From an uncultured Gammaproteobacteria bacterium (GTDB lineage Bacteria > Patescibacteriota > Patescibacteriia > Magasanikbacterales > GWA2-37-8), in contig CAYIJG010000003.1 of assembly GCA_964363685.1 (NCBI GenBank), positions 1 through 35,185 on the forward strand: DNA of 35,185 bases, read 5' to 3'. The position numbers and the translations under genes are program-made. Of this stretch, positions 11,530 to 31,203 are shown one piece after another (within the stretch, counting starts at the first letter, position 1; the number at the start of each line of letters is the position of its first letter). Under the pieces are notes generated by a model, which was not told where the DNA came from, searched no databases, and saw nothing but the letters and a program-made list of their open reading frames with translations.

Positions 11530-11600
11530 AGCGTAAAGGTTAATAATTAAACAGTACTCTAGTTAGAGTACTGTAAAATAATCAGATTGGCAATAGAACT

Positions 11601-12602: not shown

Positions 12603-12711
12603 ACGATGATTTTATATATAAATTAAGGTTTTATTAGATATTAATCATACCACTACTTTATAACACTTGTCTATTGTTTATAAAAAATAGACCAGTATAA
12701 AATGTTAAAAC

Positions 12712-13194
12712 CTATTTAGACAGCAACAAAGATACCTGCTTAATAATTTCATCATCGTTATCCGTGTAGTGCAATGTTTTTATTCCAGCTGCCTTCGCTG
12801 CTTCAATGTTGCCCATTTGATCGTCGATGTATAAGATAACTTCGGGTCGAACTTTTAATTTGTCCGCTATAAATGAATACGCACTCGAATCTTTCTTGCT
12901 TAACCCATAGTCGTTGGCTGCAAAGATATGCTCGAATATCGTTTCAAGTTGTGGCCTTATGAGTGGATGATTTTGGATAATGTCTGTTGTGAACAAGTTA
13001 ACAGAATACTTTCCTCTCATGGACTTAAAGAAATCAAGAAGTTTACTGTTGAGCTCAAAATATTCAAAGACATTATAATTCTCGCCAAACTTCTCCGTTA
13101 GGTCGCGATGCATTAAATTAAGCGCGCCAGAATAATTTTTATCCTTAGGCTTTATGATGACTCTTGAGAAATCAGAAATAATTGTTGTGTACAT
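12712..13194 (-). CDS. HAD-superfamily hydrolase (short form)
   Basis: 160-aa ORF. N-terminal IISDFSRVII (motif I-like) and C-terminal ILYIDDQMGNIEAAKAAGIKT (motif IV region). Confidence 0.65.
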   Translation of the reverse strand: MYTTIISDFSRVIIKPKDKNYSGALNLMHRDLTEKFGENYNVFEYFELNSKLLDFFKSMRGKYSVNLFTTDIIQNHPLIRPQLETIFEHIFAANDYGLSKKDSSAYSFIADKLKVRPEVILYIDDQMGNIEAAKAAGIKTLHYTDNDDEIIKQVSLLLSK

Positions 13195-13265
13195 ACTTAC
13201 TTATTAAAATACATTTCCAACTATGGGTTTGAGACAAAATTGGAATATCTTAAATTGAAAAATAG

Positions 13266-13670
13266 TTAAGGCCTGAACTTCCCGGTCGCAAGCACAGCAC
13301 AAGTTTTCTCAATTCTAGTTTTGTTCTCCTCCTTATCTTTAGCCGACTCTATCCAATCCACAAAATCTCTTTTAGCGTCAGGTGTGAGACCGCTCCACAC
13401 AGCTTTCGCCTTTGGGTTAACTCCAAGGGCTTTATATAGATTTATAGGTACGATGGCATAACAACAAGGACGACGCTTACCAGCCACAAGCTTTGAGCAA
13501 GCTACACTAATACGACGACTACGCGTCTCCGCTTGTTTGGCTGATTCTATCCAACTAATAAAATCTCGGCGCGAGATAGGCGTGAGATCTTGCCACTGCG
13601 CCTTGGCCTTTGGGTTAGCGCTGACGGCTTTGGCAAAATCGGCTGGCACTTTGGATTTTGATGTTTTCAT
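13266..13670 (-). CDS. tandem YdeI/OmpD-associated (bacteriocin-protection type) domain protein
   Basis: Two internal repeats: W.(D/G)LTP..(R/K)RDF(I/V).WIESAK..E.(R/K)..RI. The first repeat is followed by the GKRRPCCY motif typical of the family. Confidence 0.75.
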   Translation of the reverse strand: MKTSKSKVPADFAKAVSANPKAKAQWQDLTPISRRDFISWIESAKQAETRSRRISVACSKLVAGKRRPCCYAIVPINLYKALGVNPKAKAVWSGLTPDAKRDFVDWIESAKDKEENKTRIEKTCAVLATGKFRP

Positions 13671-13724
13671 AATATCATTCCATTCGAAAGTGAAAATGGA
13701 TTTTTATTTCACTCATTACATTTA

Positions 13725-13754
13725 ATTATAACAGTCTGTTATACTTTGGGTCAA
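13725..13754 (-). promoter_or_regulatory. sigma70-type promoter (TTGACC-18-TATAAT) overlapped by a perfect palindrome
   Basis: Minus-strand reading gives TTGACC at 13754-13749 and TATAAT at 13730-13725. The palindrome TATAACAG-T-CTGTTATA (13727-13743) spans the spacer and -10. Confidence 0.55.
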
Positions 13755-13804
13755 TTAGGGAGATAAGGGTGGATTACCTGTTCTATATTTTTTAAGTATT
13801 AAAA

Positions 13805-13829
13805 ACAGCCCCAAATCAGTCGGGGCTGT
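13805..13829. terminator. bidirectional hairpin terminator (ACAGCCCC-loop-GGGGCTGT)
   Basis: 8-bp G/C stem flanked by AAAAA upstream and TTTTT downstream, located after the 13861-14064 ORF. Confidence 0.65.
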
Positions 13830-13860
13830 TTTTAATTTCTGTGATTTCCAATTAAGTTGA

Positions 13861-14064
13861 CTAAGGAGTAGGTGCAGGTTCTGCGGGCTTGGTAGTATCT
13901 GTTGGGAGTTTGATATCGACGGTAGTTCCAGGCTGTTGAGGTTGTGCAGAGTTTTTTTGTAGCATCGGCAATCCGTATACAAAGAAAACAACCGCTAATC
14001 CTGCAAGAACCACAATGGCGACAATGGCCACCATGCTTCCGTTTCCTGAGGTTTCTTCTGTCAT
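13861..14064 (-). CDS. small membrane-anchored protein with Pro/Thr-rich tail
   Basis: 67-aa ORF. One TM (MVAIVAIVVLAGLAVVFFVYGL) followed by the tail ...KLPTDTTKPAEPAPTP. A terminator lies just downstream. Confidence 0.5.
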   Translation of the reverse strand: MTEETSGNGSMVAIVAIVVLAGLAVVFFVYGLPMLQKNSAQPQQPGTTVDIKLPTDTTKPAEPAPTP

Positions 14065-14470
14065 ATAGATAAATTTAAAAATAAATATAGTAGTCTATGT
14101 ATGATTTTTTTAGGTGGTTCTTTAGAATAAGCAGTAAATTTAAAATGTAGTACTTAATTTTTTTCTTTTTCTTCATCTGCTACATCTTCTTTTGCTTCTG
14201 CTACCCCTTCTTCCACCGCGTCTTTCGCTGTTTGGTACGCTTCTTCCTCCACCGCGTCAGCTAATTTATCGTCTGCTGGATCTGATATAGATTGCATATA
14301 TTTTATATTAAGAATAAATTACATATTTTTTATTTTGTATTGTTGATTAATCAATTATTTAATCGACTAACAATTTAATTGTACATTCTAGTAGATTGTT
14401 CGTCAATAGCTAGTAAAACAAATTTTCATTTAGCAAAATTAGAACCGGAAAAATACGGCTATGATTATAC

Positions 14471-14498
14471 AAAAAACGAAGCACTAAATACGCTTCGT
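14471..14498 (-). terminator. rho-independent terminator of the 19012-14567 operon
   Basis: Minus-strand ACGAAGC-GTATTTAGT-GCTTCGT followed by TTTTT, 6 nt after repeat R1. Confidence 0.6.
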
Positions 14499-14504
14499 CT
14501 ACCT

Positions 14505-14533
14505 TGGCTCCGTTTGTGGAACGAAGTTAGAAC
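14505..14533 (+). repeat. R repeat copy 1 (TGGCTCCGTTTGTGGAACGAAGTTAGAAC)
   Basis: One of four same-orientation copies of a 29-nt motif. Lies 33 nt beyond the stop of the 636-aa minus-strand gene. Confidence 0.75.
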
Positions 14534-14566
14534 TTGTTTGGCTAATAGTTCAGATCGATTTTTACC

Positions 14567-16477
14567 TTAAAAAACCACAAGAGCAGTATTGCCAATATAA
14601 GCCCAAAGACTTTTAAAACTAGAAACACTAACAGTTCTTGGTCCACGCCAAGGATCATTCACAATTATAGAAGTTGGATTTTCTACATTTCCCACAAAGC
14701 CTTTTACCACTACCGAATGCATCCCGCGATAACCGGTAGCGCCTGAATCCAGTAGAAACGTACCTGACGAGCCGAGCTGATTGTGCACCCAAATTATTAC
14801 AGGATTACCCCTTTCTACCTCTTTTACTAGATCGACAATATTCCAATTCCTTTTTAACTCTACAGAACGATATTTACTTATAAAATCATATATTGGCCCC
14901 CAATGCACGCCGTAACCTTGCACCCAATCTACATTTGGATCTCCACCCTCACCAACTGTTGCCTTGATAGAACCTTCCGAAAGAGCGGTTCCTCTATAAG
15001 CAAATACCATGCGGGTGGCGGCAATATTGCAAGTAAAAGTTTCGCTTTGGTAATACATAGGTACGTCCAAAGAAAAAACTTTATTTTTTGTGGTAAATGA
15101 ATAATTGTAATCTTCATTTGAGTCTAATCCATACACAGTTTTGATACTCTTTTTTAACTTTATACTATATTTTGTTGAATTATCCAGAGAACGACTGAGA
15201 GAAAACACCATTTTATTACCTTCCCAAGAAAAAGACCCTGGAATATTTGGATACATAGAAAAAGAATTTTCCGCTGAATTGTGATCCACCTCTTGATCAA
15301 ATTCAATTACCACTCTGGATAAATCGATAGATAGGCCATACGAAGCGTCTTTGGGATATATTGATGAAACCTTAACTTCTCCAACTACACTAAAATTTAC
15401 CTCTATATCATGGTCAGTTTTTCCACCATATTTATTTTCCATCTCACTCAAAAATTTGATTGTATAATCAACACCCTTTTTAAATTCATGACTTGGTAAA
15501 AAAATAAAAGTTTGCTCATCTTCCCAATTTATTTTACCGGTAGTTGTTGGACTAATGTAAAATTTTTCTACCACGCTCGTATGATTCATAGCTTCAGAAA
15601 AAACTATTTTTATAGGACTATCAACTCGCACAGTATTTCCTTGGTCATACAATTTAATGAAGGGAGAAGCTACGGTCTTAAAGTTAATTTTCTGAATCAA
15701 CTCCAAATCACCCTTTTCAATATCAGAAAAATCTTTGACACGATAAGAGCGCCCAGCTCTAGAGATTGATAAACTATATTCACGGTCCTGCAGAAGTGGT
15801 TTTGAGAATATTAATTTATTCTTATTATTATCTGACTTGTCGACAGTAAAATTAATTAGTGGACTGATCTCATAAACCCAGTTTACGAATTCCCCACTCG
15901 GCGCGTCAAAAATTATTTCAAAAGGGTCTTTTATGCTAATATTTTCTTGACCGTTTTTCGGGTAAATCTCTTTAATATTAGGAAGATTGGGGGAGAAAAA
16001 TTCAATAGATTGTTCGTGTTTTTCACCACCAGGAAATAATCTTTTCAAACCCACTATATATACTACAATTTTGGTCTCCGGATAAAAAGATTCTTTGGGA
16101 ATAAAAATCGCTCTATCTTTGTACCGTCCAGAAAAAAATGGTAAAGCATTTTGAAAAACCCAATCACCTTCAACTTCCGGGGACATACGAAGAGATACAT
16201 TCTCTGGATTAATAGGGACCGTAAAAGATACTTCGATTGGTTGATGCGCCTCTACTAAATACCCGGCCTCAGACACAGTTTCCAACCGGAGAAAGGGCCT
16301 TGAAAATAAAGTAACGAAAGAGAAAAATAAAACAAAAACAATAACCGCCGTATTTAATAGAACCAAAAGACGATAATATCGTTGTTTCTTATAAAGTAGA
16401 AAATTAGACACAGCTACAATAATAATAGCGATAAAAAATATTAAAATACGTGTTTTAAAACTTAAGAATGAGTCCAT
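14567..16477 (-). CDS. membrane-anchored Ig-like repeat protein with C-terminal C39-like peptidase domain
   Basis: 636-aa ORF with N-terminal TMs and several about 90-aa beta-rich repeats. C-terminal papain-fold signature: FTCNIAATRM (Cys) and MHSVVVKGF...IIVNDPW (His/Asp). Confidence 0.7.
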   Translation of the reverse strand: MDSFLSFKTRILIFFIAIIIVAVSNFLLYKKQRYYRLLVLLNTAVIVFVLFFSFVTLFSRPFLRLETVSEAGYLVEAHQPIEVSFTVPINPENVSLRMSPEVEGDWVFQNALPFFSGRYKDRAIFIPKESFYPETKIVVYIVGLKRLFPGGEKHEQSIEFFSPNLPNIKEIYPKNGQENISIKDPFEIIFDAPSGEFVNWVYEISPLINFTVDKSDNNKNKLIFSKPLLQDREYSLSISRAGRSYRVKDFSDIEKGDLELIQKINFKTVASPFIKLYDQGNTVRVDSPIKIVFSEAMNHTSVVEKFYISPTTTGKINWEDEQTFIFLPSHEFKKGVDYTIKFLSEMENKYGGKTDHDIEVNFSVVGEVKVSSIYPKDASYGLSIDLSRVVIEFDQEVDHNSAENSFSMYPNIPGSFSWEGNKMVFSLSRSLDNSTKYSIKLKKSIKTVYGLDSNEDYNYSFTTKNKVFSLDVPMYYQSETFTCNIAATRMVFAYRGTALSEGSIKATVGEGGDPNVDWVQGYGVHWGPIYDFISKYRSVELKRNWNIVDLVKEVERGNPVIIWVHNQLGSSGTFLLDSGATGYRGMHSVVVKGFVGNVENPTSIIVNDPWRGPRTVSVSSFKSLWAYIGNTALVVF

Positions 16478-18012
16478 ATATTATACATATCTTCTAAATT
16501 TTTATATAGTACCGGACCACTGTCTCTTGAATTCAAATAGACATCGGTGTAATTAAAGAGTTCATCAACTTTTGATTCGTCTACATGAAACCAATCTGGA
16601 TGACTTAAGAAAACTACGACGGTTCTTTTTTCAAGCGGCTCGCCAACTACTCCCCAATTTGAATTAAACCTCTCTATCATTTGTTCTGCAGTATACCACC
16701 ATGAGTCACCTCCATTGTTTGGAAATTCCCATATTTTCATATTTGGTGCCCTAGCTGAATTTTGATCTTGCGTATTGGGCTGATACGGCTGCGAGGTAAT
16801 TGATAAATCCCAAAATCCAGGAATTTTATTTATACCAAAATTGTATTTTGTTCTACCAGAAGTGTCTACGGTAAAACCGTTATCTTGTAAAACCTTTAAC
16901 GTAGTTACGTCTGCAAACCAGCCACCAGAGCGATAGGTGGTTGGCGTTCCGAACCCAAGATTTTTAAAAAAAATTTTTGACCATTTTACCATTTTGTCCA
17001 GCTCGCGATAACCAAAATTAGTTACCAGAATATCATACCCGTCATCATATGGAAAACCCCAGTATGTTAAATCGTACAGTTGTTTCTTTTTTAATTTACT
17101 TTTATCAAATATAACGGTAGTGCTCGGTGAGCTCGTAACGGAGTTCTCGGCCAACGCATAAAAATCTAGCTCAAGATCAGCTAGATCTTTTTCCGGAATA
17201 TCTATATGTGCGGCCTTAAGATTTTCATAAAACATATGCAAATGCAAACCCAAACTATGACCTTTGTTGGTTTTTCTTTCCAACAACCAATCTCTTATAT
17301 GGTCTCGTTGTGCTTGCGGAATAGTTTTGGTAATAAATAGTCTTGGATTTATTAGATGGCTCAGAGGAAAATTATCATGTTTTTCAGAAAGAGCGTCTAT
17401 TTTTTCCAGATATTCATTTTTTACATTATAACCCTCCCAATCAAAACTCCAAGCGACATATAAAGGATAAGAAATAAAAATATGTTCATAAAAACCTAGT
17501 GACTGGCCACAAGCAAACTCTACTTTTATATTGGCCTTGTATTTACCAACAGGCAAACTAGTTACATTTATTTTTTCCTCAAACAAAAGCTCACCTACAT
17601 TTATTAGAGAGCTCGTAGCAAAGTAACCAGACACCACATTGTTTGTCAGCTGTTCATTTTCCGTATTTACTAGCTCATAAAAAATCTTTATAGAATCCGG
17701 CCGATCGAAATATCTTTTTGCTTTACTGCCAAGCTTCACTTTTAAAATTACTTGCTTTTCTTCTTCTGCAAATTCATCACCGATTAAAATCCATTTTTTA
17801 TCGGGCTCTACCAGATCAATCAACTCATTTCTTTTGTTCTCAAAATTATTACAGGTCCAATCCTTAAAAAAAAGATCATTTGGATTTTCCGATTTAATAT
17901 GTAAAAAAAATATTACAAAAAGACTACAAACTAAAAATAGCGTTAGCCCAGCTAGCACATGCCAAAATCTTCTAGATCTTCTTTCTCTGCCAAACAGTGG
18001 CCACTTTATCAT
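16462..18012 (-). CDS. membrane-anchored hypothetical protein, possibly polysaccharide-deacetylase-like
   Basis: 516-aa ORF with one N-terminal TM. WSFDWEGYNV and GLHLHMF segments vaguely resemble NodB-type motifs. Overlaps the downstream gene by 16 nt (operon). Confidence 0.5.
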   Translation of the reverse strand: MIKWPLFGRERRSRRFWHVLAGLTLFLVCSLFVIFFLHIKSENPNDLFFKDWTCNNFENKRNELIDLVEPDKKWILIGDEFAEEEKQVILKVKLGSKAKRYFDRPDSIKIFYELVNTENEQLTNNVVSGYFATSSLINVGELLFEEKINVTSLPVGKYKANIKVEFACGQSLGFYEHIFISYPLYVAWSFDWEGYNVKNEYLEKIDALSEKHDNFPLSHLINPRLFITKTIPQAQRDHIRDWLLERKTNKGHSLGLHLHMFYENLKAAHIDIPEKDLADLELDFYALAENSVTSSPSTTVIFDKSKLKKKQLYDLTYWGFPYDDGYDILVTNFGYRELDKMVKWSKIFFKNLGFGTPTTYRSGGWFADVTTLKVLQDNGFTVDTSGRTKYNFGINKIPGFWDLSITSQPYQPNTQDQNSARAPNMKIWEFPNNGGDSWWYTAEQMIERFNSNWGVVGEPLEKRTVVVFLSHPDWFHVDESKVDELFNYTDVYLNSRDSGPVLYKNLEDMYNIWTHS

Positions 18013-19012
18013 AAAAATAGGTTACTAGAGATATGCTTATTATAATTAAAAATTGTATTAACCAGACTGTTTCTGCGGCAAATGTTGCGTGATTTAAAAA
18101 ACTAGATAAACCTAAAATTAGGATCACATTAACCAAAAAAATAAACAAAGCTCTGTTGCCTAAAAATATAAAATATTTATTTAGGACACTTGCTTGGCTG
18201 ATATATTTGTATAGTAATACTACCCCGAAACTATAAATAATTCCATAGAGTAAAAATAAAATAGATGGCGGAAATCTATACCACAGAGAAAGTCCTGAAA
18301 TTCTTAAAAAAACAAATAAAATCGAACACATTATAAAAATTAATAGAGCCGGTGATTTACCGACGCTACTTTTTTGTGTTCCACCAGCAATGAATCCAAA
18401 AACAAAGGTAGGAAAATAAGACAAAACTCCATAACTATGAGTATGCCCATTGCCCACCATCAAGGTTTTCACAACAGTTAAAAAATCACCCCCTCCATCA
18501 AGTGTATACAGCCATCCACCCAAAAAATAAATAATGAAAGAAATTAAGATAAATACTATTGGTCGCTTTAATAATTTTTTTAAAACTGGAGAAAAAATTA
18601 AAATTAGAATAATATAAAGAAAAAATGGAATAATAAACTCAGTAAAGACAGGTAAATATTGAAAGGTCAAAATAGAATGGAACTGGTCAATTGAGATACC
18701 GTTAAAAAGAAAATAATAACTAAGATATGCTGCTACATAATAAATGAAAAGCAAAAGCAACATTCTTTTAACTTGTTTTTTTAAATTTATTTTTTTATTG
18801 TCAGATAATTTTAAACCATAGATATAAGCAAAACAAAATAAAAAGGTGCTAAAACTGACTGTTGTCCCCCACCATATCAATCTATCTAAAATAAAATTAT
18901 ACTCTTTTACAAAAACGACATTGATATGAGCAGTGAGCATGAAAAAGATCGCGCTTCCTCGTAGAAAGTCAATTTTTGCAAATCTTTCTTCTGTGGGTAA
19001 GTTTAGAAGCAT
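17972..19012 (-). CDS. acyltransferase-3/DUF1624-like polytopic membrane protein
   Basis: 346-aa ORF with about 10 TMs. N-terminal IDFLRGSAIFFMLTAH motif typical of acyltransferase-3 / heparan-alpha-glucosaminide N-acetyltransferase-like families. Confidence 0.6.
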   Translation of the reverse strand: MLLNLPTEERFAKIDFLRGSAIFFMLTAHINVVFVKEYNFILDRLIWWGTTVSFSTFLFCFAYIYGLKLSDNKKINLKKQVKRMLLLLFIYYVAAYLSYYFLFNGISIDQFHSILTFQYLPVFTEFIIPFFLYIILILIFSPVLKKLLKRPIVFILISFIIYFLGGWLYTLDGGGDFLTVVKTLMVGNGHTHSYGVLSYFPTFVFGFIAGGTQKSSVGKSPALLIFIMCSILFVFLRISGLSLWYRFPPSILFLLYGIIYSFGVVLLYKYISQASVLNKYFIFLGNRALFIFLVNVILILGLSSFLNHATFAAETVWLIQFLIIISISLVTYFYDKVATVWQRKKI

Positions 19013-19091
19013 AGCTTATTATATAAAGCATACCATAATAATGAAGAACTCACTACGTCTTCAACAACCAGGTAAACTCCCTCCGGTTCGG

Positions 19092-19127
19092 CAAAAACAA
19101 AAGAGGCCAGATCACTTTGACTGGGCC
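19092..19127 (-). terminator. rho-independent terminator after the 95-aa ORF and repeat R2
   Basis: Minus-strand GGCCCAG-loop-CTGGCC (one bulge) followed by TCTTTTGTTTTT. Confidence 0.55.
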
Positions 19128-19202
19128 CCGTAGACATAAACCAATTTTCAATTTATCTGATATTACAGATAAACATGCCCTTTCGAGTGTGTTTACCTCA
19201 TG

Positions 19203-19231
19203 TGGCTCCATTTATGGAACGACGTTAGAAC
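19203..19231 (+). repeat. R repeat copy 2 (TGGCTCCATTTATGGAACGACGTTAGAAC)
   Basis: Lies 36 nt beyond the stop of the 95-aa minus-strand ORF. Similarity to R1 extends about 20 nt further (TT.TTTGG..A..TAGTT). Confidence 0.75.
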
Positions 19232-19266
19232 TTTTTTGGAAAGATAGTTGGTTTACTTGGTATTCT

Positions 19267-19554
19267 TTATGATATTTTTCGTATCTTTCCATTATTTAAA
19301 ATTGTTTTTCTAAGAACATAGCTATCTGGTTTAACTAGAGGCACATCTAAACGTACTGAGAAACCAGAGATTTTAGGATCCGAACGACCTGAGTACTTTT
19401 CTTCAATTACCCCTCTATGCTTAACACCGTCTTCTTCAAATTCGATTCTATCCCCTACTTCTAAATTAGATTCTCCTCCCACCTCAACTATTTCTCCAGT
19501 AAAACCTTCAAGCTCATCAGTAGGGATTCCTGATCCTTTAAATTCTCTAGGCAT
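19267..19554 (-). CDS. hypothetical small acidic protein (host-like low G+C)
   Basis: 95-aa ORF bounded by repeats R2 and R3. EVGDRIEFEEDGVKHRGVIEE resembles small SH3/KOW-like beta-barrel proteins (weak). Confidence 0.55.
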   Translation of the reverse strand: MPREFKGSGIPTDELEGFTGEIVEVGGESNLEVGDRIEFEEDGVKHRGVIEEKYSGRSDPKISGFSVRLDVPLVKPDSYVLRKTILNNGKIRKIS

Positions 19555-19667
19555 AATAAAATATGGGTACCCTAATAAAATTAGCCAATAAAACTATCTA
19601 CTTAATCAAAAGCATAGTTTAATTGTATCAGAAGTTCTAAAGTCTCGTAAAGCCCAACTGTCCGATG

Positions 19668-19696
19668 TGGCTCCACTGCCTAGACGACATTAGAAC
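19668..19696 (+). repeat. R repeat copy 3, divergent (TGGCTCCACTGCCTAGACGACATTAGAAC)
   Basis: Keeps both conserved boxes (TGGCTCC and GACGAC.TTAGAAC) but has a different central 9 nt. Same orientation as the other copies. Confidence 0.65.
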
Positions 19697-19737
19697 CGAT
19701 TTTATTTACAATAGGTCTGATATAAACTTTATTATTT

Positions 19738-19808
19738 AAAAAACAAAAACTCCGTTCGCCCTGATCTATCTCCAATTACTTAGAAACAAATCAGGTGGTG
19801 CGAACGGA
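19738..19808 (-). terminator. long-loop hairpin terminator module downstream of the GC-rich ORF (T module, island 1)
   Basis: Minus-strand CTCCGTTCGC-(ACCAC)-CTGAT-24 nt AT-rich loop-ATCAG-G-GCGAACGGAG followed by TTTTTGTTTTTT. Confidence 0.6.
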
Positions 19809-19858
19809 GTCTCGCACCACCGCCCCCGTGCATTGACGCGCGAGGAGCGTGGTGTCCG

Positions 19859-20191
19859 CTAGTCCGGCTGATCCGAACGTTCCACGCCTTCGCGCGAACG
19901 CCACTGGATCAGGTCGAACCGACGCTTGAACTCGGCGCAGGCCACGATCGCAGGACCCCGGTGACCGAGGCCGATGCGGACGTGACGCATGACGTTGCCA
20001 GTGCCGTCGAACTCGTGGCACGGCTCCATCCGGCAGTCCTGACCGCCGCTGCCGTTGCCATCGGTCGACATCAGCACGTTGCTGGAGGTACCGTCATCGT
20101 GGAACAGAACGGCCTCCTTCTTGCCAGTGTCTCCGTCGGTTGCGCCGGTGATCATGAGGTGATCACCATCTCGAGCAATTGCCTCTGCCAT
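19859..20191 (-). CDS. foreign high-G+C ORF A, hypothetical 110-aa protein
   Basis: ATG preceded by a purine-rich GGGGGGAAGGA. Third codon positions are mostly G/C in this frame (read by eye). Own upstream promoter and downstream terminator. No family recognised. Confidence 0.6.
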   Translation of the reverse strand: MAEAIARDGDHLMITGATDGDTGKKEAVLFHDDGTSSNVLMSTDGNGSGGQDCRMEPCHEFDGTGNVMRHVRIGLGHRGPAIVACAEFKRRFDLIQWRSREGVERSDQPD

Positions 20192-20284
20192 TGTCTTGTC
20201 TCGATCCTTCCCCCCGGTTTCCCAGGAAAATGAATAACAATCGCGTTATTACCCCTTTTCCGGTGAAAATTATTTCAATAAAAA

Positions 20285-20313
20285 ATATTACCAAATTTTA
20301 GGCAATTTGTCAA
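20285..20313 (-). promoter_or_regulatory. sigma70-type promoter for ORF A (TTGACA-17-TAATAT)
   Basis: Minus-strand TTGACA at 20313-20308 and TAATAT at 20290-20285, within the AT-rich spacer between two GC-rich blocks. Confidence 0.6.
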
Positions 20314-20361
20314 TGCCTTAAATCGAGATCTGCATACAACCTATTAATGCAAGCGTCTATA

Positions 20362-20390
20362 TTGACAAAGGAGCCTTTCTGTGATAATCT
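20362..20390 (+). promoter_or_regulatory. sigma70-type promoter for ORF B (TTGACA, TGtGATAAT extended -10)
   Basis: TTGACA at 20362-20367. GATAAT at 20383-20388 is preceded by TGT. Divergent from the ORF A promoter. Confidence 0.55.
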
Positions 20391-20577
20391 AGTTTGTTAT
20401 TAGAGTTGTTTTTTGTTACTAATTTATGACAAAAATCCTTAATAGCATGTACCTTACAATAAACATGTGATCTATTGAGTGCCAGGAAATTAAGAAAGTT
20501 TGCCTAAGCAAGTATTTTTAATTCCCTGGTTCTCTCTCAACCTCAACCCCTCAACACCCTGGCCAAAGGAGCCTCTC

Positions 20578-21054
20578 ATGAGCGAGTTCGTATTGGCGAT
20601 TCCCGTGGCGCTGGTCATCCTCTTCTTGATCTGGAAGATCTGGCGGTACCTCAACCGACGCCTCGAAGAAGCCTTCGTGGAATGGTCCAATACTACCGGA
20701 CAGATGAAGTGGAAGGTGATCGCCATCTTCAGCCAGATCATCCTCCTGTTGCTGGTGCTCGCGATCGTCCCCGGTATTGCGTTGTTCGGGGGCGGGTGGA
20801 AGAGTGTCGGCGACTTCGTCCATTACAAGAATGGCGACGTCGGCATGCTCATCTACGGCCACTGGAACCTCTCACCGGCGATGGCGAACTACTACCTCAT
20901 GGGCGACGTCGTCCTGGGACTACCGCTTCTGATGATAGTGTTCTCAGTCATCGTCGAACCGGCGATGTTCCTCGCAGGCGGGTACAGGTACTTCCCATTC
21001 GTCGGGCCCTTCGGTCGATGGGTGGCGCCACCCTCGAGGAGGCGGTCACGGTAG
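20578..21054 (+). CDS. foreign high-G+C ORF B, hypothetical 158-aa membrane protein
   Basis: Start chosen at the ATG 6 nt after AAGGAG (20566-20571). About 4 hydrophobic helices and strongly G/C-biased third positions. The track ORF from 20500 includes AT-rich leader. Confidence 0.65.
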   Translation: MSEFVLAIPVALVILFLIWKIWRYLNRRLEEAFVEWSNTTGQMKWKVIAIFSQIILLLLVLAIVPGIALFGGGWKSVGDFVHYKNGDVGMLIYGHWNLSPAMANYYLMGDVVLGLPLLMIVFSVIVEPAMFLAGGYRYFPFVGPFGRWVAPPSRRRSR

Positions 21055-21206
21055 TTGCTACTGATCAAGCCCTTCGGGGCAAGATCCATGAGCGGCTCGG
21101 ACGCAACGCGCGACCGACCACCGCTCAGACCCACACCATCCGAGCCGCTTACGCTACCTAATAATTAATTTGTTATGTTGCGTAAGCTCAGATGAGAATT
21201 AAATTT

Positions 21207-21238
21207 AAAAAAGCCTTTTCAAAAGAAGGGCTTTTTTA
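21207..21238 (+). terminator. rho-independent terminator after ORF B
   Basis: AGCCTTT-CAAAA-GAAGGGCT hairpin (with G-T pairs) followed by TTTTTT. Confidence 0.6.
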
Positions 21239-21256
21239 GTTGAAGGATTTTTGATA

Positions 21257-21284
21257 TGCTCCGTTTGTGGAACGACGTTAGAAC
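21257..21284 (+). repeat. R repeat copy 4 (T-GCTCCGTTTGTGGAACGACGTTAGAAC)
   Basis: 28 nt, one base shorter at the 5' box. Sits between the ORF B terminator and the ORF C terminator. Confidence 0.75.
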
Positions 21285-21324
21285 TTTTTATAACTACAAA
21301 ACAATATAGTTTCGTTAGTGAGTT

Positions 21325-21366
21325 TAAAAAAACACCTTACTGTTTTAAAGTAAAGTGTTTTTTATT
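21325..21366. terminator. bidirectional hairpin terminator downstream of ORF C
   Basis: AACACCTTACT-GTTTTAA-AGTAAAGTGTT stem flanked by an A-run and a T-run. Confidence 0.6.
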
Positions 21367-21472
21367 TTTATATATCGAGATCTCCACTGCTATATTTATT
21401 TGCAATCATATAAACATAGCAGCTAGGAAGACCTCGAGAGATCGCCCCGCCGCGCGGTTTCACTAACGACTA

Positions 21473-21856
21473 TTAACGACTGTAGATAGAGTTGTGGAAA
21501 CCCGTGTCGTTGTTCTCACGGATTGGTGTGAAAACGTAGGCAGGTGCGAGTGCCTCCGGGGGACACTGACGAAAGAAGTCGTCTTCACATCCCCTAAATT
21601 CCTGCCACGGCGGAAAATCACTGACAGAGATAGAGCCAGGGGTGCGCGGATGTCCAAGACAGCCGTTACGGACATGTCCTTCGAGGATCTTGAGCAGATT
21701 CCCCATCACCGTTCCAAAGAGCTCGGGCGAAGTGAAGTGAACCTCTCCATCGAAATCGTCAGGAAACTGAATTCTGTTGAAGCGGAGGTCTGTCAGTATT
21801 GGCTCTAGATGCCACCGGTGTGCTGCCTGACATGGCGCTGTAGGAGTCGCCACCAC
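21473..21856 (-). CDS. foreign GC-rich ORF C2 (second reading frame; possible 3' part of a frameshifted gene)
   Basis: 127 codons open after a TAG, with only a GTG start. Protein-like translation (LTDLRFNRIQFPDDFDGEVHFTSPELFG...). Overlaps ORF C1 by 98 nt in another frame. Confidence 0.45.
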   Translation of the reverse strand: MVATPTAPCQAAHRWHLEPILTDLRFNRIQFPDDFDGEVHFTSPELFGTVMGNLLKILEGHVRNGCLGHPRTPGSISVSDFPPWQEFRGCEDDFFRQCPPEALAPAYVFTPIRENNDTGFHNSIYSR

Positions 21857-22277
21857 GCTCTAGACAGCCGTCAGCGCTAAGACCGCGGGAAATGTGGGGG
21901 AAGGGATCTGTCCATCCCAAACCAGCGAGCATGCCCACATTGATCCTGAACTCCCAGTAGGCATTCGTCTCGAGCTCAAACTCTTTCCGTTGAGAAGAGC
22001 GGCCAGACGGTGATCTGGTGATCGTTTCTACGTAGCGAGGATGGAGCAGGAGCGCCATCCCAGGAACGCCGAAGAAGAGGGTGGTGATCCGGAGAAGCGC
22101 CAGATTGGCCACGTCGTTGTCGGGCAGCATCATGACGGTCCGGCGGACGGCGTGGTAGATCGAATCAATCGAAGCACTACCGAGGAAACGCAGAGTACCA
22201 ATGGCCGTGGCCGCCTTCACACATTCATCGAAGTAGCGGTCGGGAGTCGGGATATGAGCAAGCGGCCGATTAAGCAT
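21759..22277 (-). CDS. foreign GC-rich ORF C1, hypothetical protein
   Basis: Start set at the ATG (22277) preceded by AAGGGG. The track start at 22334 lies in AT-rich leader. 172 codons; no family recognised. Confidence 0.55.
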   Translation of the reverse strand: MLNRPLAHIPTPDRYFDECVKAATAIGTLRFLGSASIDSIYHAVRRTVMMLPDNDVANLALLRITTLFFGVPGMALLLHPRYVETITRSPSGRSSQRKEFELETNAYWEFRINVGMLAGLGWTDPFPHISRGLSADGCLERGGDSYSAMSGSTPVASRANTDRPPLQQNSVS

Positions 22278-22394
22278 GTGTAACCCCTTGTTATCCGTTT
22301 GGTCAAGTAAAAAAGAGCCGACTAACCGTATCATAAGTTTTTTATAAAGTCAAGATTGTGTCGTGCAGAAATTAATACTCGTAAAATGTACGCA

Positions 22395-22425
22395 TAAAAA
22401 ATAACCGCTTGGTTAAGCGATTATT
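22395..22425 (-). terminator. rho-independent terminator of tRNA-Asn
   Basis: Minus-strand AATAATCGCTT-AACC-AAGCGGTTATT followed by TTTTT, 9 nt after the tRNA 3' end. Confidence 0.7.
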
Positions 22426-22433
22426 TTTCTAAG

Positions 22434-22505
22434 CTCCCAGGGTCGGATTCGAACCGACGACCAACTCGTTAACAGCGAGCTGCGCTACCGCTGCGCTACC
22501 TGGGA
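22434..22505 (-). tRNA. tRNA-Asn (anticodon GTT)
   Basis: 72-nt cloverleaf read by hand. Acceptor stem TCCCAGG/CCTGGGA and D arm GCGC-AGCGGTA-GCGC. Anticodon arm GCTCG-CTGTTAA-CGAGT and T arm GTCGG-TTCGAAT-CCGAC. Discriminator G; CCA not encoded. Confidence 0.9.
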
Positions 22506-22643: not shown

Positions 22644-24623
22644 CTAATCAAGAACGAACCTATCAAGCAAATTCTTGATATCATCATATCTAAAAGATTT
22701 CCTACCTTCATTTACTAAATCAAAGTCTGCTCCCGGTGTAGAAATATCGTTTTTTTCCATTACCACCACATCAACCAAGACCTCACCGTCTCTTACTTCA
22801 AAAATTGCGGGTAGTCTGGATAATTTTTCACTAACCTCCTGCTGTTTCCCTTGTTTCAACGAATTAGTTAGTTTTCTGGCAATAGCCTCTATATTTTTGA
22901 TTATATCTGTACCTGCTTCTGCTTTCTTGATAGCGCGCAAATGGGCTTCTGTTTTTTGACGATTATCACTGCCTTCCATTACATGCTTTTCACTTTCAGA
23001 AATCCTTGTTTCAATCACACGAGAATTCGTAGCTCTTTTTAAAGCAAGCAACAGATTTTGCACCTGTTCAGATTTGATTTTACCCACACCATCCCCAATT
23101 TCAAAAGCCAGGGTAAGCTCATCACCACCAACATGAGCAGTAAATAAATTATCCTTCCCTTGCAATCCAAACTCTCCGCAAACCGACTGTACGCTCTTCC
23201 AAAAAGCTCTTAATTTTCTTGTGGTTTCATCTCCCGCAGACAAAGAAGCCTCTTTAAAGCTATTAAATTTTTTGTCAGCGCCCTCTATTCCCGCAATATT
23301 TTGCAGAACTGTTTCATATTCCAACAACAAATCTACACCAAGATCTTTTACATCCATACTTATATAAACGGCATTTTTCATCCCAATCGCTCGCCTATCA
23401 AATTCCATTTTAGAAGTAAAATTTTTAGCTCGTTCATCTGAGTATAGCTCTTGTGCCAAACTTGCTCTTTCTGAATCTTCCAACTCACTACCATTTCTCA
23501 TCTTATCGCCAAGTATTTTTGATTTTATAGCTCTTTGCTCAACCTCATCAATCTCTTCTTTTACAAAAGGCTTTATAACATCTAAAATATTCAATTTCTT
23601 AATGTAGACTATTATCTTATCCAAAAGAGGCTGCTGACTTGAATCAACTTTAATTTTTCCTTTGCGGACATCTCTCAGTAAATCTCTATTTAAAATATAT
23701 GTCTGCTTGGCACCCTCTTTTGGAGTAGGTAAAAAAATATTCCAACTATTTCCACTTTTATCAACCAAAGTATTGCCATCTTTAATCATCTCTTCCCTTA
23801 AGCTATTTATTGACTTAACATCCTCTAGAACTTGATCTTGATTAAATTCAGAACCATACTTTCCTTCTCCCGTGGTTCTTCTAGACAAAAGTCCCGCCTG
23901 CAAAGAACTGCCTAAAGCTAACATTTTTTCTTCAGCTGAATTTCCATTCACGGTGGCTATGCCATAATTAACTCTAAAGCCCCCCTTGCCATGATTTTCA
24001 GGAAGTTCACCATTTAAAGCAGTGCGGAAATTTTTTAATTTTTCTAAATTACCCCCCACCACTTTACCATTAATCAGACCGTCGACCATAGTTAGGATAA
24101 AATCCTTCATCTGCCGATCAACATCTTGCATTACAGTATCTATGTCTTCAAGATTTATCGCGGAATCTTTTGGAATTCTATAAATTTCTGTTTTATAGTC
24201 AGACTGTAAAAGTTCAATTTTTTGTTCATCTTCCTTGCCTTCGTTAATTTGCGCAATCTTGATGCGCAACACGTCTCTTCTTTTGTGAATTATTTCGTTG
24301 GTCTTGGTTGGACCAAAAATCTCATCATTTAGATACTTAATAGCTAAAAAATTTGCGCCCGGACTAATAAAACTCACAACCCTATCCCCTTTTTCCAATT
24401 TTGTAAAAACTTTACCCCACTGTCTTCTTTCAGACATACCAGCCAACTTAGCCTTTTCCTTATTATCTATTTCATTATTTTCCACAAAATTATCAAGGGC
24501 CATAACAACTCCTATCTCACGATAAGATCTCTCAACAATATCATCATCAAAATTCTCTTCTTCCAAATCCGGTTTTTTATGATCTATACCGAGAATTGTA
24601 GGGTCACGAAATCTTTCACTCAT
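22644..24623 (-). CDS. large hypothetical protein with degenerate GGDEF/palm-like motifs
   Basis: 659-aa ORF. Residues about 417-545 read VYISMDVKDLG...AGDETTRKL...TAHVGGDELTLAFE, laid out like a GGDEF nucleotide-cyclase domain. A weaker similar layout occurs at residues about 80-228. Confidence 0.7.
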   Translation of the reverse strand: MSERFRDPTILGIDHKKPDLEEENFDDDIVERSYREIGVVMALDNFVENNEIDNKEKAKLAGMSERRQWGKVFTKLEKGDRVVSFISPGANFLAIKYLNDEIFGPTKTNEIIHKRRDVLRIKIAQINEGKEDEQKIELLQSDYKTEIYRIPKDSAINLEDIDTVMQDVDRQMKDFILTMVDGLINGKVVGGNLEKLKNFRTALNGELPENHGKGGFRVNYGIATVNGNSAEEKMLALGSSLQAGLLSRRTTGEGKYGSEFNQDQVLEDVKSINSLREEMIKDGNTLVDKSGNSWNIFLPTPKEGAKQTYILNRDLLRDVRKGKIKVDSSQQPLLDKIIVYIKKLNILDVIKPFVKEEIDEVEQRAIKSKILGDKMRNGSELEDSERASLAQELYSDERAKNFTSKMEFDRRAIGMKNAVYISMDVKDLGVDLLLEYETVLQNIAGIEGADKKFNSFKEASLSAGDETTRKLRAFWKSVQSVCGEFGLQGKDNLFTAHVGGDELTLAFEIGDGVGKIKSEQVQNLLLALKRATNSRVIETRISESEKHVMEGSDNRQKTEAHLRAIKKAEAGTDIIKNIEAIARKLTNSLKQGKQQEVSEKLSRLPAIFEVRDGEVLVDVVVMEKNDISTPGADFDLVNEGRKSFRYDDIKNLLDRFVLD

Positions 24624-28636: not shown

Positions 28637-29083
28637 TTACATGCCAGCGACACAATAAATACTTTCTGGAGAAACATGTCTGACACCATTAACACAAGTT
28701 CCTGTTTTTATCCAAGTCCTGGTTTGTCTCCCTGAGTTTGGACAAACTCTTGGGGTGACTGCGCTTGTCCAATCAGCTTCGGTACAGACAGGTGTGGTAG
28801 AGAGAGTTGAGCTAGTGCTGGTCGATGGAGTAGGTTGAGGACCGCTTACCCCAACAGTAGAACTAGAAGGTGGTGGTGTTGTGACAGGACCAGACGCCCC
28901 GACGGTAGAAGTATTACCAGTAGGCGTGGTTGTTGAAGAGGATGGAACAAGCTTACTATTTATAAGTCCCTTTTTTTGAAGCACAACTAGTCCTGCAACT
29001 ATACTTCCTAAAGCTAAAAATCCGACGATTACTTTGGTGCTTGTTTTTATACTTGTTTTGGTGGTTGTGCCTAGGTTATTCAT
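28637..29083 (-). CDS. membrane-anchored Thr/Ser/Pro-rich surface protein
   Basis: 148-aa ORF. The N-terminal 31 residues are nearly identical to those of the next gene. Low-complexity linker and Cys-containing C-terminal module. Confidence 0.6.
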   Translation of the reverse strand: MNNLGTTTKTSIKTSTKVIVGFLALGSIVAGLVVLQKKGLINSKLVPSSSTTTPTGNTSTVGASGPVTTPPPSSSTVGVSGPQPTPSTSTSSTLSTTPVCTEADWTSAVTPRVCPNSGRQTRTWIKTGTCVNGVRHVSPESIYCVAGM

Positions 29084-29118
29084 ATTTTAAATATGATATT
29101 AATAAAATAACTTGACTA

Positions 29119-30990
29119 CTATAAAGAATAATTCAAAACTCCACCATCAACTACATATGAATCTGATGCTGAGAACGGACCCATTTCACTCCCAAAAATA
29201 GGGGTATAAAAATACTCCAAATCTCCAGTTCTCCAAGCAACAGCGCCCCAACCAATTGAACCAGAAATAAAAGGACGGAGACTTATATTTACTGGGAATT
29301 GACCAGGTTGAATCATATCGACTGTACTAGCTGTAACAATAAGTGTTCTAGAAGCTCCTGGAGAAATAGCAAAGTAATCCAACAAAGCATTAATGTCGTT
29401 ACTTGCATTGAAAGTAATAGTAGTCGTAGGTACGGTACTTGAGGTAATTACAGCATTTGATTGAGCTAGGTAGGTACCCAAAGCCCCATTCCCATTATCT
29501 TCGTATAGTCTGAAGTCGTTAATTAATCCTAAACCGAGACCAGACTTTATTACAGAAACTTTAACAGAAGAAAATCTTAAATCACGAGTGCCGGCATTTG
29601 TAACAGTAAATTTAAATATTTTAGCCCTAGAATCTAAAGACAAAGTATTACCAAGAGACGCGCTAGATATTACAGGGAAAGCATCATGAAAAACATTTGG
29701 TCTTGATCTGGCAAATCTGGATTCTAAAGGACCAGTAGCGCTATCTAAATTATAATTTATATTTTGACGACCTAAAGATACACCAAAAGGATCAAACGCC
29801 TCTATATCACTACTCTGGTCGCTGGCTATCACAAAAGCTGTAGGCACATTGTTGACCATTGTGCCAGAAGGATTTATATTACCTTTTAAGGTATAAACCT
29901 TATCGCCATTGGCTGGGATACTTGAGACAAAACCACTAAACACAACGATGCCTTGAACATAATTACCTGTAGCTAATAAATTAGTCCCATCATATAAAGA
30001 TAATGTCCCAAACGTGCCAAGAGTGGAAAGCAAAGCGCCTCCGTTTGGATTTACAGTCTGAAGAGTTAATTTCATTAAATTTACTCTACTATCCAAACCA
30101 CTAGCACGGGCACCAATCCTCCATTTACCTAACTGTACACCGACTGAATCAGGTCCATAAATTCTAGAATCCGAAACGACGTCAATGTTGTTAATATTAA
30201 GACTGGCGGTCGTTGTGACAGTTGTTGTTGTTGGTGTTGGGGTAGAGGTTGGAGTGGGGGTCGAAGAGCAGGGATGCGAACCACAACCACTTGTGGCACA
30301 ACGGGTAGATTTCCATTGGCCCTGTGAATTATAGAGCGCCATCTGCCATTGTGCGCTGTTTGAATTTGTAGCGCAGTATACGGTCATTAGCGAATTATTA
30401 ACACTGTTTGTACATATTAACGCTAACTCCTCAAAAGTGGACGCTTCTGGATGATTTTGTTTGGCATAGCCAGCGGCAGAATTGGCACTAAAATAACCTG
30501 GTAAATTGGTGTATTCGTTACGCACGATACAAGCACCGATATCTTGAGTCAACGGAGTTGGGGTGGTGGTTGGAGTTGGCGGAGTGGTGGTTGGGGCTGT
30601 AAGAGGAACACATCTGCCATCAAGACACTTTGTAGTTACTGCTGGACAGAGAGAATTAACTGAAGCTATAGAAGTTTTTGTACCACAATAATATTCTTTT
30701 ACTTCTTCTTTGCTTAAACAAACATCTGCGTTTGAAGTAACTGGAACGCCATTTTGATCTTGGAGACTGGTAACACCCGCTATATCTATTCTTATTCCCC
30801 CGTCGGAATCATTACAGGCAAGATTACTTGGGGTGGTAGTTGGAGGAGGAAAAATGGTTGGGGCAAAAAGCTTCGACTTGTTTTTAAATAAAACTACGCC
30901 TGCCACTATACTTCCTAAAGCTAAAAATCCGACGATTACTTTGGTACTTGTTTTTACACCTGTTTTAGTGGCTGTGCCAAAATTATCCAT
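29119..30990 (-). CDS. large membrane-anchored surface protein
   Basis: 623-aa ORF with an N-terminal anchor. Its C.DSDGG...EYYCG...C.DGRCV module is shared with the 11601-12602 lipoprotein. Pro/Thr linkers and a large beta-rich C-terminal region. Confidence 0.7.
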   Translation of the reverse strand: MDNFGTATKTGVKTSTKVIVGFLALGSIVAGVVLFKNKSKLFAPTIFPPPTTTPSNLACNDSDGGIRIDIAGVTSLQDQNGVPVTSNADVCLSKEEVKEYYCGTKTSIASVNSLCPAVTTKCLDGRCVPLTAPTTTPPTPTTTPTPLTQDIGACIVRNEYTNLPGYFSANSAAGYAKQNHPEASTFEELALICTNSVNNSLMTVYCATNSNSAQWQMALYNSQGQWKSTRCATSGCGSHPCSSTPTPTSTPTPTTTTVTTTASLNINNIDVVSDSRIYGPDSVGVQLGKWRIGARASGLDSRVNLMKLTLQTVNPNGGALLSTLGTFGTLSLYDGTNLLATGNYVQGIVVFSGFVSSIPANGDKVYTLKGNINPSGTMVNNVPTAFVIASDQSSDIEAFDPFGVSLGRQNINYNLDSATGPLESRFARSRPNVFHDAFPVISSASLGNTLSLDSRAKIFKFTVTNAGTRDLRFSSVKVSVIKSGLGLGLINDFRLYEDNGNGALGTYLAQSNAVITSSTVPTTTITFNASNDINALLDYFAISPGASRTLIVTASTVDMIQPGQFPVNISLRPFISGSIGWGAVAWRTGDLEYFYTPIFGSEMGPFSASDSYVVDGGVLNYSL

Positions 30991-31069: not shown

Positions 31070-31095
31070 TACTTATCCCCCTTCATTATTTTTAT

Positions 31096-31162: not shown

Positions 31163-31203
31163 CTCTGCGAACCCATTTTGTCCAGCAGGCGCGCTTTCTT
31201 TAA

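Follow-up and report, generated by a model that had tools for sequence, protein, structure and literature searches.

How do short blocks of high G+C come to lie in an AT-rich chromosome, directly 3' of a tRNA gene, and how long have they been there? The question is raised by a stretch of 35,185 bp from a contig assigned to the Patescibacteria (CAYIJG010000003.1), referred to here as the window, which is 39% G+C overall and 36.7% G+C over positions 1-19000. Its tRNA-Asn(GTT) gene occupies 22433-22505 of the minus strand (called by ARAGORN, and matched by the Rfam tRNA family with 70.3 bits), and the 3' end of this gene (22433/22434) points toward three such blocks: A (19795-20225, 63.8% G+C), B (20540-21165, 58.8%) and C (21440-22300, 55.7%). 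The spacers between them are 31.2% (20226-20539) and 29.6% G+C (21166-21439), the left flank is 32.5% and both flanks are about 32%. Two more GC-rich blocks, at 31.2-31.5 and 31.8-32.3 kb, contain what we call cassettes E and D. The G+C at third codon positions (GC3) is not uniform either, being 0.76, 0.83 and 0.62 in the open reading frames (ORFs) of A, B and C, compared with 0.19-0.42 in the host genes of the window. An original prediction, made from the letters of the sequence, had pointed out the three blocks, their predominantly G/C third positions and the same pattern at 31-32.5 kb, and all of this was borne out by measurement, the last by both the G+C profile and GC3. It had further read the blocks as unameliorated genes recently acquired from a high-G+C donor, and that part fared less well. 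Our favoured explanation, held with moderate confidence, is that the blocks are the coding parts of autonomous, moron-like single-gene units, which occupy a hypervariable slot 3' of tRNA-Asn in an AT-rich chromosome.

The mosaic itself is real. Contigs of seven independent assemblies, from different runs and assemblers (ENA ERZ1292617, ERZ1292623, ERZ1292627 and ERZ1292643; Logan SRR326966xx-326967xx; all from Hainich groundwater, 0.1-µm filters), match the window at 99.8-100% and cross every composition boundary. A single contig of 6990 bp covers 15328-22317, ie all three blocks and 4.5 kb of AT-rich genes. An assembly or binning artefact, with GC-rich pieces of another organism fused to an AT-rich contig, would fit the low coverage (about 2-5x in the contig names), the frequent ending of short contigs within the AT-rich spacers and the departure of one contig from the window exactly at the tRNA 5' end. 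Its chance is nevertheless practically negligible, since all the junctions are reproduced by the independent assemblies, the same mosaic is seen around homologs from unrelated samples, as well as on a 474-kb contig of a metagenome-assembled genome (MAG), and the coverage of a mostly GC-rich contig (3.3x) is similar to that of a mostly AT-rich one (4.6x). The contig ends recur in short-read assemblies of several runs, at 20378-20389 and 21340-21369; possible causes are low coverage, repeated shell modules (the leaders and terminators described below) and strain-level breakpoints. Differences between the window and two matching contigs, L011 and L021, are Ns or A>C-type errors and are uninformative on selection.

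The blocks had also been taken for real genes, and this was confirmed for A and B and is probable for C. The A ORF (19859-20191, minus strand) encodes 110 amino acids (aa), with a G+C of 0.67 and 0.47 at first and second codon positions (GC1 and GC2). Its stop-free run of 143 codons was equalled in 241 of 2000 shuffles and is not significant alone; conserved homologs exist, and among them substitutions are most frequent at third positions and about equal at first and second, with a ratio of non-synonymous (dN) to synonymous (dS) divergence, omega, of 0.36-0.48. The predicted product is a small soluble protein with invariant His and Cys residues and an invariant C-terminal motif, LIQWRSRE. The B ORF (20578-21054, plus strand; 158 aa; GC1 and GC2 of 0.54 and 0.38) shows clean three-base periodicity over its whole length, and its stop-free run of 206 codons was equalled in 6 of 2000 shuffles. 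AlphaFold2 (AF2) models its product as a small membrane protein of three long helices and a small beta-sheet, with a predicted local distance difference test score (pLDDT) of 85; a fold search of PDB and BFVD with this model gave no match. For A, the AF2 model was poor (pLDDT 45) and was left out of the fold search. Judged from their sequences, A and B are clearly protein-coding and under purifying selection, weak compared with that on core genes.

Cassette C is recognised by its ORF length and by the phase of its GC3. The ORF occupies 21759-22277 of the minus strand (172 aa, or 191 aa from 22334), GC3 rises to 0.65-0.85 in its centre and its phase fits the frame at 21880-22150, and the stop-free run of 193 codons was equalled in 35 of 2000 shuffles (1.8%). 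No homolog was found among 5.8 billion proteins, the sole match (P0004) being the 172-aa version of the same gene at 100% identity, and there was no family match and no sequence match in PDB. C is probably a protein-coding ORFan. The GC-rich tail of the block, C2 (21440-21758, about 54% G+C), had been grouped with C as a second gene, and this half of the proposal did not hold up as well, as no clear frame emerged: the periodicity is ambiguous, and an ORF on the plus strand (21494-21808) fits it about as well as the 77-aa minus-strand ORF reported by gene callers (21473-21706). In clustering, the 77-aa product is a singleton, and it matches no family. C2 as a gene is doubtful; it could be a long structured 3' untranslated region (UTR) of C.

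In an AT-rich genome a GC-rich island is often an RNA gene, and the blocks could be read as structured non-coding RNAs whose ORFs are by-products of scarce stop codons. Such a reading would suit the 3' UTR of B and C2, which are GC-rich with no clear periodicity, the former folding into conserved hairpins; it would also suit the unremarkable length of the A ORF and one comparison of A homologs in which an alternative frame was nearly as conserved as the coding frame (72% against 75%). We regard it as very unlikely. Rfam, searched at gathering thresholds and at E <= 1, matched only the tRNA; B and D are strongly three-base periodic; in A it is the third positions that change most, with omega below 1; the membrane-protein model of B is confident; and the Shine-Dalgarno (SD) sequences are correctly spaced. 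As to what the proteins are, searches of Pfam, PHROGs, PADLOC and NCBIfam gave no significant match for A, B, C, C2, D or E, in keeping with the earlier statement that no product fits a recognised family. Weak matches to TadE, MC5, PspB and others were all far below the cut-offs and were discarded. None of the homologs of A, B and D has a Pfam domain or an informative name.

The ORFs are predicted to be enclosed in expression signals of their own. The general layout of a unit would begin with a sigma-70-type promoter and an AT-rich leader (95-190 nt) that forms a hairpin of about 20 bp; an SD sequence and the ORF would follow, and then a 3' UTR and a long-stem intrinsic terminator. In cassette A, on the minus strand, the promoter scan called TTGACA-17-TAATAT at 20313-20285, one of two near-consensus promoters proposed earlier. 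Promoter and leader together span 20192-20313. The leader, of about 95 nt, has a hairpin of about 20 bp (about 20268-20218) that is conserved in alignments of 5-6 genomes, with a consensus fold of 21 pairs, 2 of them compensatory, and ends with the SD GGGGGGAAGGA. Beyond the ORF, the 3' UTR and terminator (19735-19858) are nearly invariant in 6 genomes: a short GC-rich 3' UTR is followed by a long interrupted hairpin and then by TTTTTGTTTTT. The terminator reads ACTCCGTTCGC...CCTGATTTGTTTC...ATCAGG...GCGAACGGAG plus a T run, and shows compensatory changes among the 6 genomes.

Cassette B is transcribed divergently from A. Its promoter was the second of the two proposed and stood less well: TTGACA is present at 20362-20367, followed by TGtGATAAT, the spacer is 15 nt, and the site, read in the sequence, was not called by the scanner and remains a candidate. 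Promoter and leader span 20362-20577 of the plus strand, with an AT-rich leader of about 180 nt, a long hairpin at about 20477-20534 (fold z = -3.3) and the SD AAAGGAG. After the ORF comes a 3' UTR (21055-21238, plus strand) which is 73% identical to that of a homologous unit, L104, and ends in an intrinsic terminator (21206-21238). Its first 110 nt or so are GC-rich; because they lack periodicity and fold into hairpins that are conserved (the consensus fold of just 2 sequences has 4 compensatory pairs), they are better taken as a structured 3' UTR than as coding sequence. Cassette C has the SD AAGGGG; the C/C2 unit is closed by an AT-rich bidirectional hairpin terminator (21324-21367), and another bidirectional hairpin terminator, AATAATCGCTTAACCAAGCGGTTATTTTTT, was found by inspection and terminator scan between C and the tRNA (22395-22430). 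An SD at each ATG, hairpin terminators between the blocks (present after A, B and C/C2) and, more generally, compositionally foreign genes driven by AT-rich host-type promoters and terminators had all been described beforehand, and the corresponding signals were found at the units.

The same architecture recurs in cassettes D and E, both on the minus strand, whose promoters match the consensus at 12 of 12 positions. The D unit (31737-32509) has a perfect TTGACA-17-TATAAT promoter at 32509-32481, an ORF of 135 aa at 31876-32283 (GC3 0.88, strong three-base periodicity) and a terminator at 31737-31800. The E unit (31096-31704) has a perfect consensus promoter at 31704-31676, an ORF of 87 aa at 31204-31467 and a terminator at 31096-31165. 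Short motifs shared by D and E had suggested paralogy, a suggestion that was dropped (BLASTP E = 0.17).

Comparison with relatives indicates that a unit is inherited as a whole and that its ORF is the part that changes. When the A cassettes of 5-6 genomes are aligned, homology extends from a point a few bases before the -35 hexamer as far as the T run of the terminator; the homologous segment corresponds to exactly one predicted transcription unit. The contexts differ, the cassette lying beside tRNA-Asn in the window and between tRNA-Asp and an L20/L35/IF3/tmRNA cluster in L012, from a Magasanikbacteria MAG (GCA_017991415.1), and its relative L013. Within the alignment up to 21 of 30 columns (leader) and 26 of 30 (terminator) are invariant in the best windows, compared with 8-17 of 30 over most of the coding sequence (CDS), which has a single peak of 28 of 30 at the C-terminal motif. 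The B unit behaves similarly in comparison with L104: 81% identity in the core of the leader and 73% in the 3' UTR, as against 54% in the CDS and 37% in the protein.

The A family comprises five protein clusters in all, the four others being at 51-85% identity, with dS up to 0.9. A scan of genome contigs with family A and one of metagenome contigs gave only one locus each. All A homologs are 59-64% G+C, with GC3 of 0.67-0.80, in flanks of 25-40% G+C. For B, an exhaustive search with HMMER through 1.8 billion representatives yielded only four homologs, all distant (28-37% identity), and D has three relatives. In L012 and L013 the region from tRNA-Asp to tmRNA holds a GC-rich gene cluster of its own, 50-63% G+C with GC3 up to 0.88 and spacers of 25-28% (L012:4974-5783, 8528-8860, 8926-9615, 9841-11181; L013:7369-7674, 9014-9607). 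It includes a 269-aa lipoprotein and a conserved 110-aa partner gene downstream of the A homolog.

The closest comparison is with L026, a 78.6-kb ENA contig whose core genes are 85-88% identical to those of the window in nucleotide sequence, with dS of 0.56-1.1 and omega of 0.01-0.09. Here the tRNA-Asn gene is kept, and A, B and C are missing beside it. In their place are an AT-rich lipoprotein-like gene and a different, unrelated GC-rich ORF of 108 aa; after this ORF come the A-type terminator known from the window and a copy of the 27-nt motif (see below), and past these synteny is lost. The original prediction had called for a comparison of the tRNA-Asn locus in related genomes, and the content does differ. 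The D and E slots are occupied in both the window and L026. D is syntenic in L026 and in L103; its CDS is 78% identical between the window and L026, with dS 0.40, dN 0.21 and omega 0.54, compared with a dN of 0.014-0.05 for core genes. In E the shell is kept and the CDS cannot be aligned at the nucleotide level (promoter and leader 92% identical, CDS 48%), the proteins being 29% identical (E = 6e-6). By these alignments the non-synonymous divergence of the cassette ORFs is about ten times as fast as that of core genes; in relatives the ORFs are replaced, inside conserved shells, by a distant allele or an unrelated GC-rich ORF; and the tRNA-Asn flank and the D/E slots are strain-variable.

Is the high G+C then a mark of recent arrival? 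The reading put forward at the outset was that an episymbiont had recently imported genes from its high-G+C host, or from a phage of that host, and had re-wired them locally with promoters of its own. Several observations suit it: base composition and amino-acid usage are typical of a GC-rich genome, with GC1, GC2 and GC3 all raised and an abundance of Gly, Ala, Arg and Pro in the products; the syntenic L026 lacks A, B and C; the location adjoins a tRNA; and small, fast-evolving proteins could conceal their homologs in a donor. Under the amelioration model of Lawrence and Ochman, a recent transfer reportedly has its closest homologs in a donor clade of matching composition, and its synonymous G+C decays toward that of the host. 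No such donor clade was found, nor such a decay in D. No homolog of a cassette product from a GC-rich organism was detected among 5.8e9 and 1.8e9 proteins or in phage, plasmid and IMG/VR collections. Phage sequences contained nothing that matched A or D by tblastn, and plasmids nothing that matched the whole region by blastn; A likewise had no match in an IMG/VR protein scan and no sequence match in PDB. The homologs that could be placed are all in AT-rich DNA of 30-43% G+C, one of them on the 474-kb contig mentioned above, which belongs to a Candidatus Magasanikbacteria groundwater MAG; a search for the donor clade therefore led only to AT-rich contexts or, for C, to no homolog at all. Judged from that MAG, from the 0.1-µm filter fraction and from its gene content, the window probably belongs to a related, presumably ultra-small, bacterium of the candidate phyla radiation.

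Nor does the composition of A and D appear to have drifted toward that of the host. GC3 remains high across A homologs separated by a dS of up to 0.9, and in D it is 0.87-0.88 in three lineages (the window, L026 and L105). Lineage-specific third-position changes in D number 20 from GC to AT and 8 from AT to GC, from which GC3 would settle at about 0.75; if the bias were like that of the host (equilibrium GC3 of 0.30-0.42), 91-94% of them should be GC to AT (P = 1e-4 to 3e-3). High G+C is common to every homolog found and, in the best-sampled family, D, is near stationary. The ratio of changes in D and the uniformly GC-rich A homologs lead us to regard it as a long-lived property. Because the shell accompanies the ORF across genomes and contexts, and is conserved more than the ORF, the AT-rich signals were not supplied on the spot to a gene that had just arrived; other AT-rich genomes inherit promoter, leader and terminator together with the A ORF, and the proposed local re-wiring of host or host-phage genes is not upheld. 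Homologs of the same composition at the same place in relatives, which had been named beforehand as evidence against a recent acquisition, are found for D, which is syntenic in a relative; A has such homologs in composition, at other loci; B and C, absent from L026, do not. Taken together, a recent and unameliorated import is improbable. GC1 and GC2 are raised in addition to GC3, and Gly, Ala, Arg and Pro abound in the proteins; we therefore consider that the cassette ORFs evolved for long under GC pressure; their sequences are compatible with an old GC-rich origin.

In the favoured explanation, then, the GC-rich coding sequences would trace to an old GC-rich source, and their G+C would since have been upheld against the AT-biased mutation of the host by selection at the nucleotide or mRNA level, by GC-biased conversion among alleles or by re-seeding from an unsampled GC-rich reservoir. 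The cassettes would form an accessory gene pool circulating among related groundwater Patescibacteria, with exchange at a small number of hot spots; the likely route would be homologous recombination within the conserved shells and flanks, with no integrase involved. Their small products may serve a role in conflict or interaction (host contact, phages or competitors), which would account for the rapid turnover.

Several points weigh against this explanation. The only grounds for a role in conflict or interaction are the pace at which the proteins evolve and the place of their genes in the genome. Upstream of C there is only a weak promoter candidate, TTGACT-17-TACGGT (22353-22325). The test of polarised substitutions is significant only for D, which lies outside the region beside tRNA-Asn; in A the third-position changes are 12 against 5, for an implied equilibrium of 0.56 and P = 0.05-0.22, a merely suggestive result, and parsimony polarisation on three taxa can miscount. 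The comparative depth is thin (A 5 sequences, B 2 with DNA, D 3, C none). In the comparison of the window with L026, other short intergenic regions are conserved as well as the shells are (82-94%), and the shells by themselves therefore give no proof of recent exchange; an identity of 92-97% in the E shell, at one time taken as a sign of recent gene flow, was dropped on the same comparison. Finally, given the rapid divergence of the proteins, a GC-rich donor could exist and yet escape a sequence search.

By what route would the cassettes be exchanged? Classical island integration, integron capture and mutagenesis by a diversity-generating retroelement all fail their defining tests, because there is no integrase or reverse transcriptase, the tRNA 3' end is not repeated and a template/variable repeat pair is lacking. 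Among the 29 larger ORFs scanned across the 35-kb window there is no recombinase, transposase or reverse transcriptase domain, which agrees with the earlier remark that no integrase is present. The tRNA 3' end (22-nt or 15-nt, <=3 mismatches) has no second copy except one chance-level match, and within the window there is neither a template/variable repeat pair nor a second copy of any GC-rich block. The simplest mechanism left is homologous exchange by way of the conserved shells and flanks.

A 27-nt motif, GTTCTAACGTCGTTCCACAAACGGAGC, offers a different lead. It lies at 21258-21284 of the minus strand, with further copies at 19205-19231 and 14507-14533, a degenerate one at 19665-19696 and one in L026 (L026:18207-18233), and belongs to the repeat families D3/D5. 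Three copies with <=2 mismatches occur in the window, against 0 expected. Every copy lies downstream of a minus-strand unit, 35-160 nt past its end, and the copies thereby bracket [C/C2], [B, A], [95-aa ORF] and [acyltransferase, 516 aa, 636 aa] as modules. The hairpin that the motif can form is weak, and the L026 copy adjoins the shared A-type terminator. Identities as a tRNA fragment or att site, as a sigma-54 promoter and as an attC core were weighed, and the sequence of the motif fits none of them. DNA scans of IMG/VR with a 15-mer of the A terminator and a 16-mer of the motif gave chance hits only, none of which extended to a longer motif.

The motif would have a natural place in a dedicated system of cassette exchange, in which a recombinase or single-stranded DNA transposase encoded elsewhere recognises sockets (promoter with leader hairpin, terminator hairpin and the 27-nt GTTCTAACGTCGTTCC... 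motif) and swaps the GC-rich ORFs between them, in the manner of an integron or of the hairpin-directed mobility of IS200/IS605-type elements. Such a system would explain the sharp replacement of the E CDS inside a conserved shell, the same terminator and motif after unrelated ORFs in the window and L026, the bracketing of modules far above chance, the conserved hairpins at both ends of a unit and the absence of a local integrase. On balance it is unlikely, however: no enzyme of the kind was seen in the 35 kb, the cassettes have mixed orientations and a promoter each, neither a common junction motif nor a target duplication was seen at the boundaries of E or A, the other genomes with A cassettes lack the 27-nt motif, and the hairpins are adequately explained as a leader structure and a terminator. 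Still, the motif is the best lead to any hairpin- or motif-directed system encoded elsewhere. A broader and speculative proposal, which we would not expect to prove right, is that of an undescribed cassette system of Patescibacteria: AT-rich expression sockets (consensus promoter, leader hairpin, terminator hairpin and, here, the 27-nt motif) would host interchangeable hypervariable ORFs whose G+C is actively maintained. Maintenance might, with as little assurance, come from escape from an AU-directed nuclease, the setting of translation rate or GC-biased conversion among alleles. If true, this would be a form of single-gene diversification comparable in role to integrons and antigenic-variation loci and built differently. 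No description of GC-rich cassettes in Patescibacteria was found in the literature.

Exchange through shells and flanks invites comparison with known classes of variable locus. Phage morons are independent transcription units with their own promoter and terminator and a deviant G+C (HK97 gp15-type; Cumby, Davidson & Maxwell 2012, PMC3594210). Our cassettes resemble them in having a promoter and terminator of their own in A, B (with the extended -10 candidate), D and E, C having only the weak promoter; in a G+C of 56-64% against surroundings of 30-37%; and in being present in one genome and absent from a relative, with small accessory products mostly of unknown function. As to insertion between genes that adjoin in a relative, A, B and C are absent beside the conserved tRNA-Asn of L026, where synteny beyond the slot is lost, and the D and E slots are filled in both genomes. 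The likeness stops at the neighbourhood, which is chromosomal (GreA, S-adenosylmethionine synthetase, a ClpC-like ATPase, LytR, an acyltransferase and similar genes), and neither the cassette products nor two neighbouring ORFs tested had a PHROG match. A further difference is that the extreme shift in G+C is confined to the ORF and persists in diverged homologs, the shell being conserved and the ORF turning over. Because nothing phage-like surrounds them, the cassettes are moron-like and are not members of the moron class.

Like tRNA-linked islands and islets, the region is a variable, atypical segment which abuts a tRNA 3' end and differs in content between relatives. It departs from them in lacking an integrase and a direct repeat of the tRNA 3' end, in being a mosaic of single-gene units of 0.5-0.9 kb split by AT-rich host-like DNA instead of one foreign block, and in that the same type of unit is also found away from tRNAs, at 31-32.5 kb. 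O-antigen and capsule clusters are loci of allelic replacement with a stably atypical G+C between conserved flanks. There too, diverged or unrelated alleles are exchanged between the flanks by homologous recombination and the composition does not ameliorate; here a single small ORF in its own UTRs replaces the multi-gene operon, and the deviation is toward high G+C and not low. Integron cassettes and clusters of attC sites lacking integron integrases (CALIN) share with our cassettes their shortness, mostly ORFan content and deviant composition, a conserved imperfect palindrome after each and the lack of a nearby integrase; no IntI integrase was present among the window ORFs scanned. In contrast to them, the orientations here are -, + and -, the cassettes have their own promoters, and the palindromes are terminators with T runs, which differ between cassettes and have no R''/R' core sites, no dedicated attC model having been run. 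A diversity-generating retroelement, with its reverse transcriptase and its template/variable repeat pair, has no counterpart in the window.

If the favoured explanation were confirmed on more genomes, the cassettes would be an unusually clear failure of base composition as a clock of horizontal transfer: segments less than 100 nt apart hold opposite compositions (about 30% against about 60-65% G+C, with GC3 up to 0.88) while synonymous sites of core genes are near saturation. They would challenge the rule that atypical G+C means recent import, as used in island prediction for genomes of the candidate phyla radiation (CPR), and would point to a force acting on a specific class of genes, be it selection, biased conversion or a hidden GC-rich reservoir. 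They would also define a small and recognisable class of strongly promoted, fast-evolving ORFans at strain-variable hot spots of ultra-small bacteria, whose products are candidate factors in host interaction, phage defence or competition. Such factors are almost entirely unknown in these organisms.

Some further features of the two loci were recorded. The tRNA-Asn gene has a consensus-like promoter, TTGACA-17-TATATT, upstream at 22596-22568. A population variant (L009:1-443; Hain_H51 contig 48311) is identical to the window from 20389 to the tRNA-Asn 5' end (22505) and then diverges; it carries a gene for an 82-aa GIY-YIG nuclease between two partial copies of the 5' half of the tRNA, an arrangement that suggests a small mobile GIY-YIG element targeting the tRNA gene. 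On the far side of tRNA-Asn a minus-strand ORF of 659 aa (22644-24623) matches no family, and its product is only 38% identical to the positional counterpart in L026, the neighbouring genes compared being 90-98% identical; by this measure it is another fast-evolving gene at the tRNA-Asn hot spot.

Just upstream of the E and D promoters, at 31723-31731 and 32524-32532, is the sequence GTGGATAAG (DnaA-box-like TTATCCAC on the plus strand), and a near copy follows the E terminator at 31073-31081. Two nearly identical, GC-rich perfect palindromes of 34 nt, AACCCCGCCCCGCA...GCGGGGCGGGGTT, lie 24 kb apart at 8364-8397 and 32547-32580, and probably represent a shared bidirectional terminator module. 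A repeat-rich protein of 623 aa, with 31-nt repeats of GGTGGT type, is encoded at 29119-30990 of the minus strand (recorded together with 28789-30858; omega 0.29 in comparison with L026), and about the first 122 nt of this gene are duplicated at 28970-29091, inside the neighbouring 148-aa gene.

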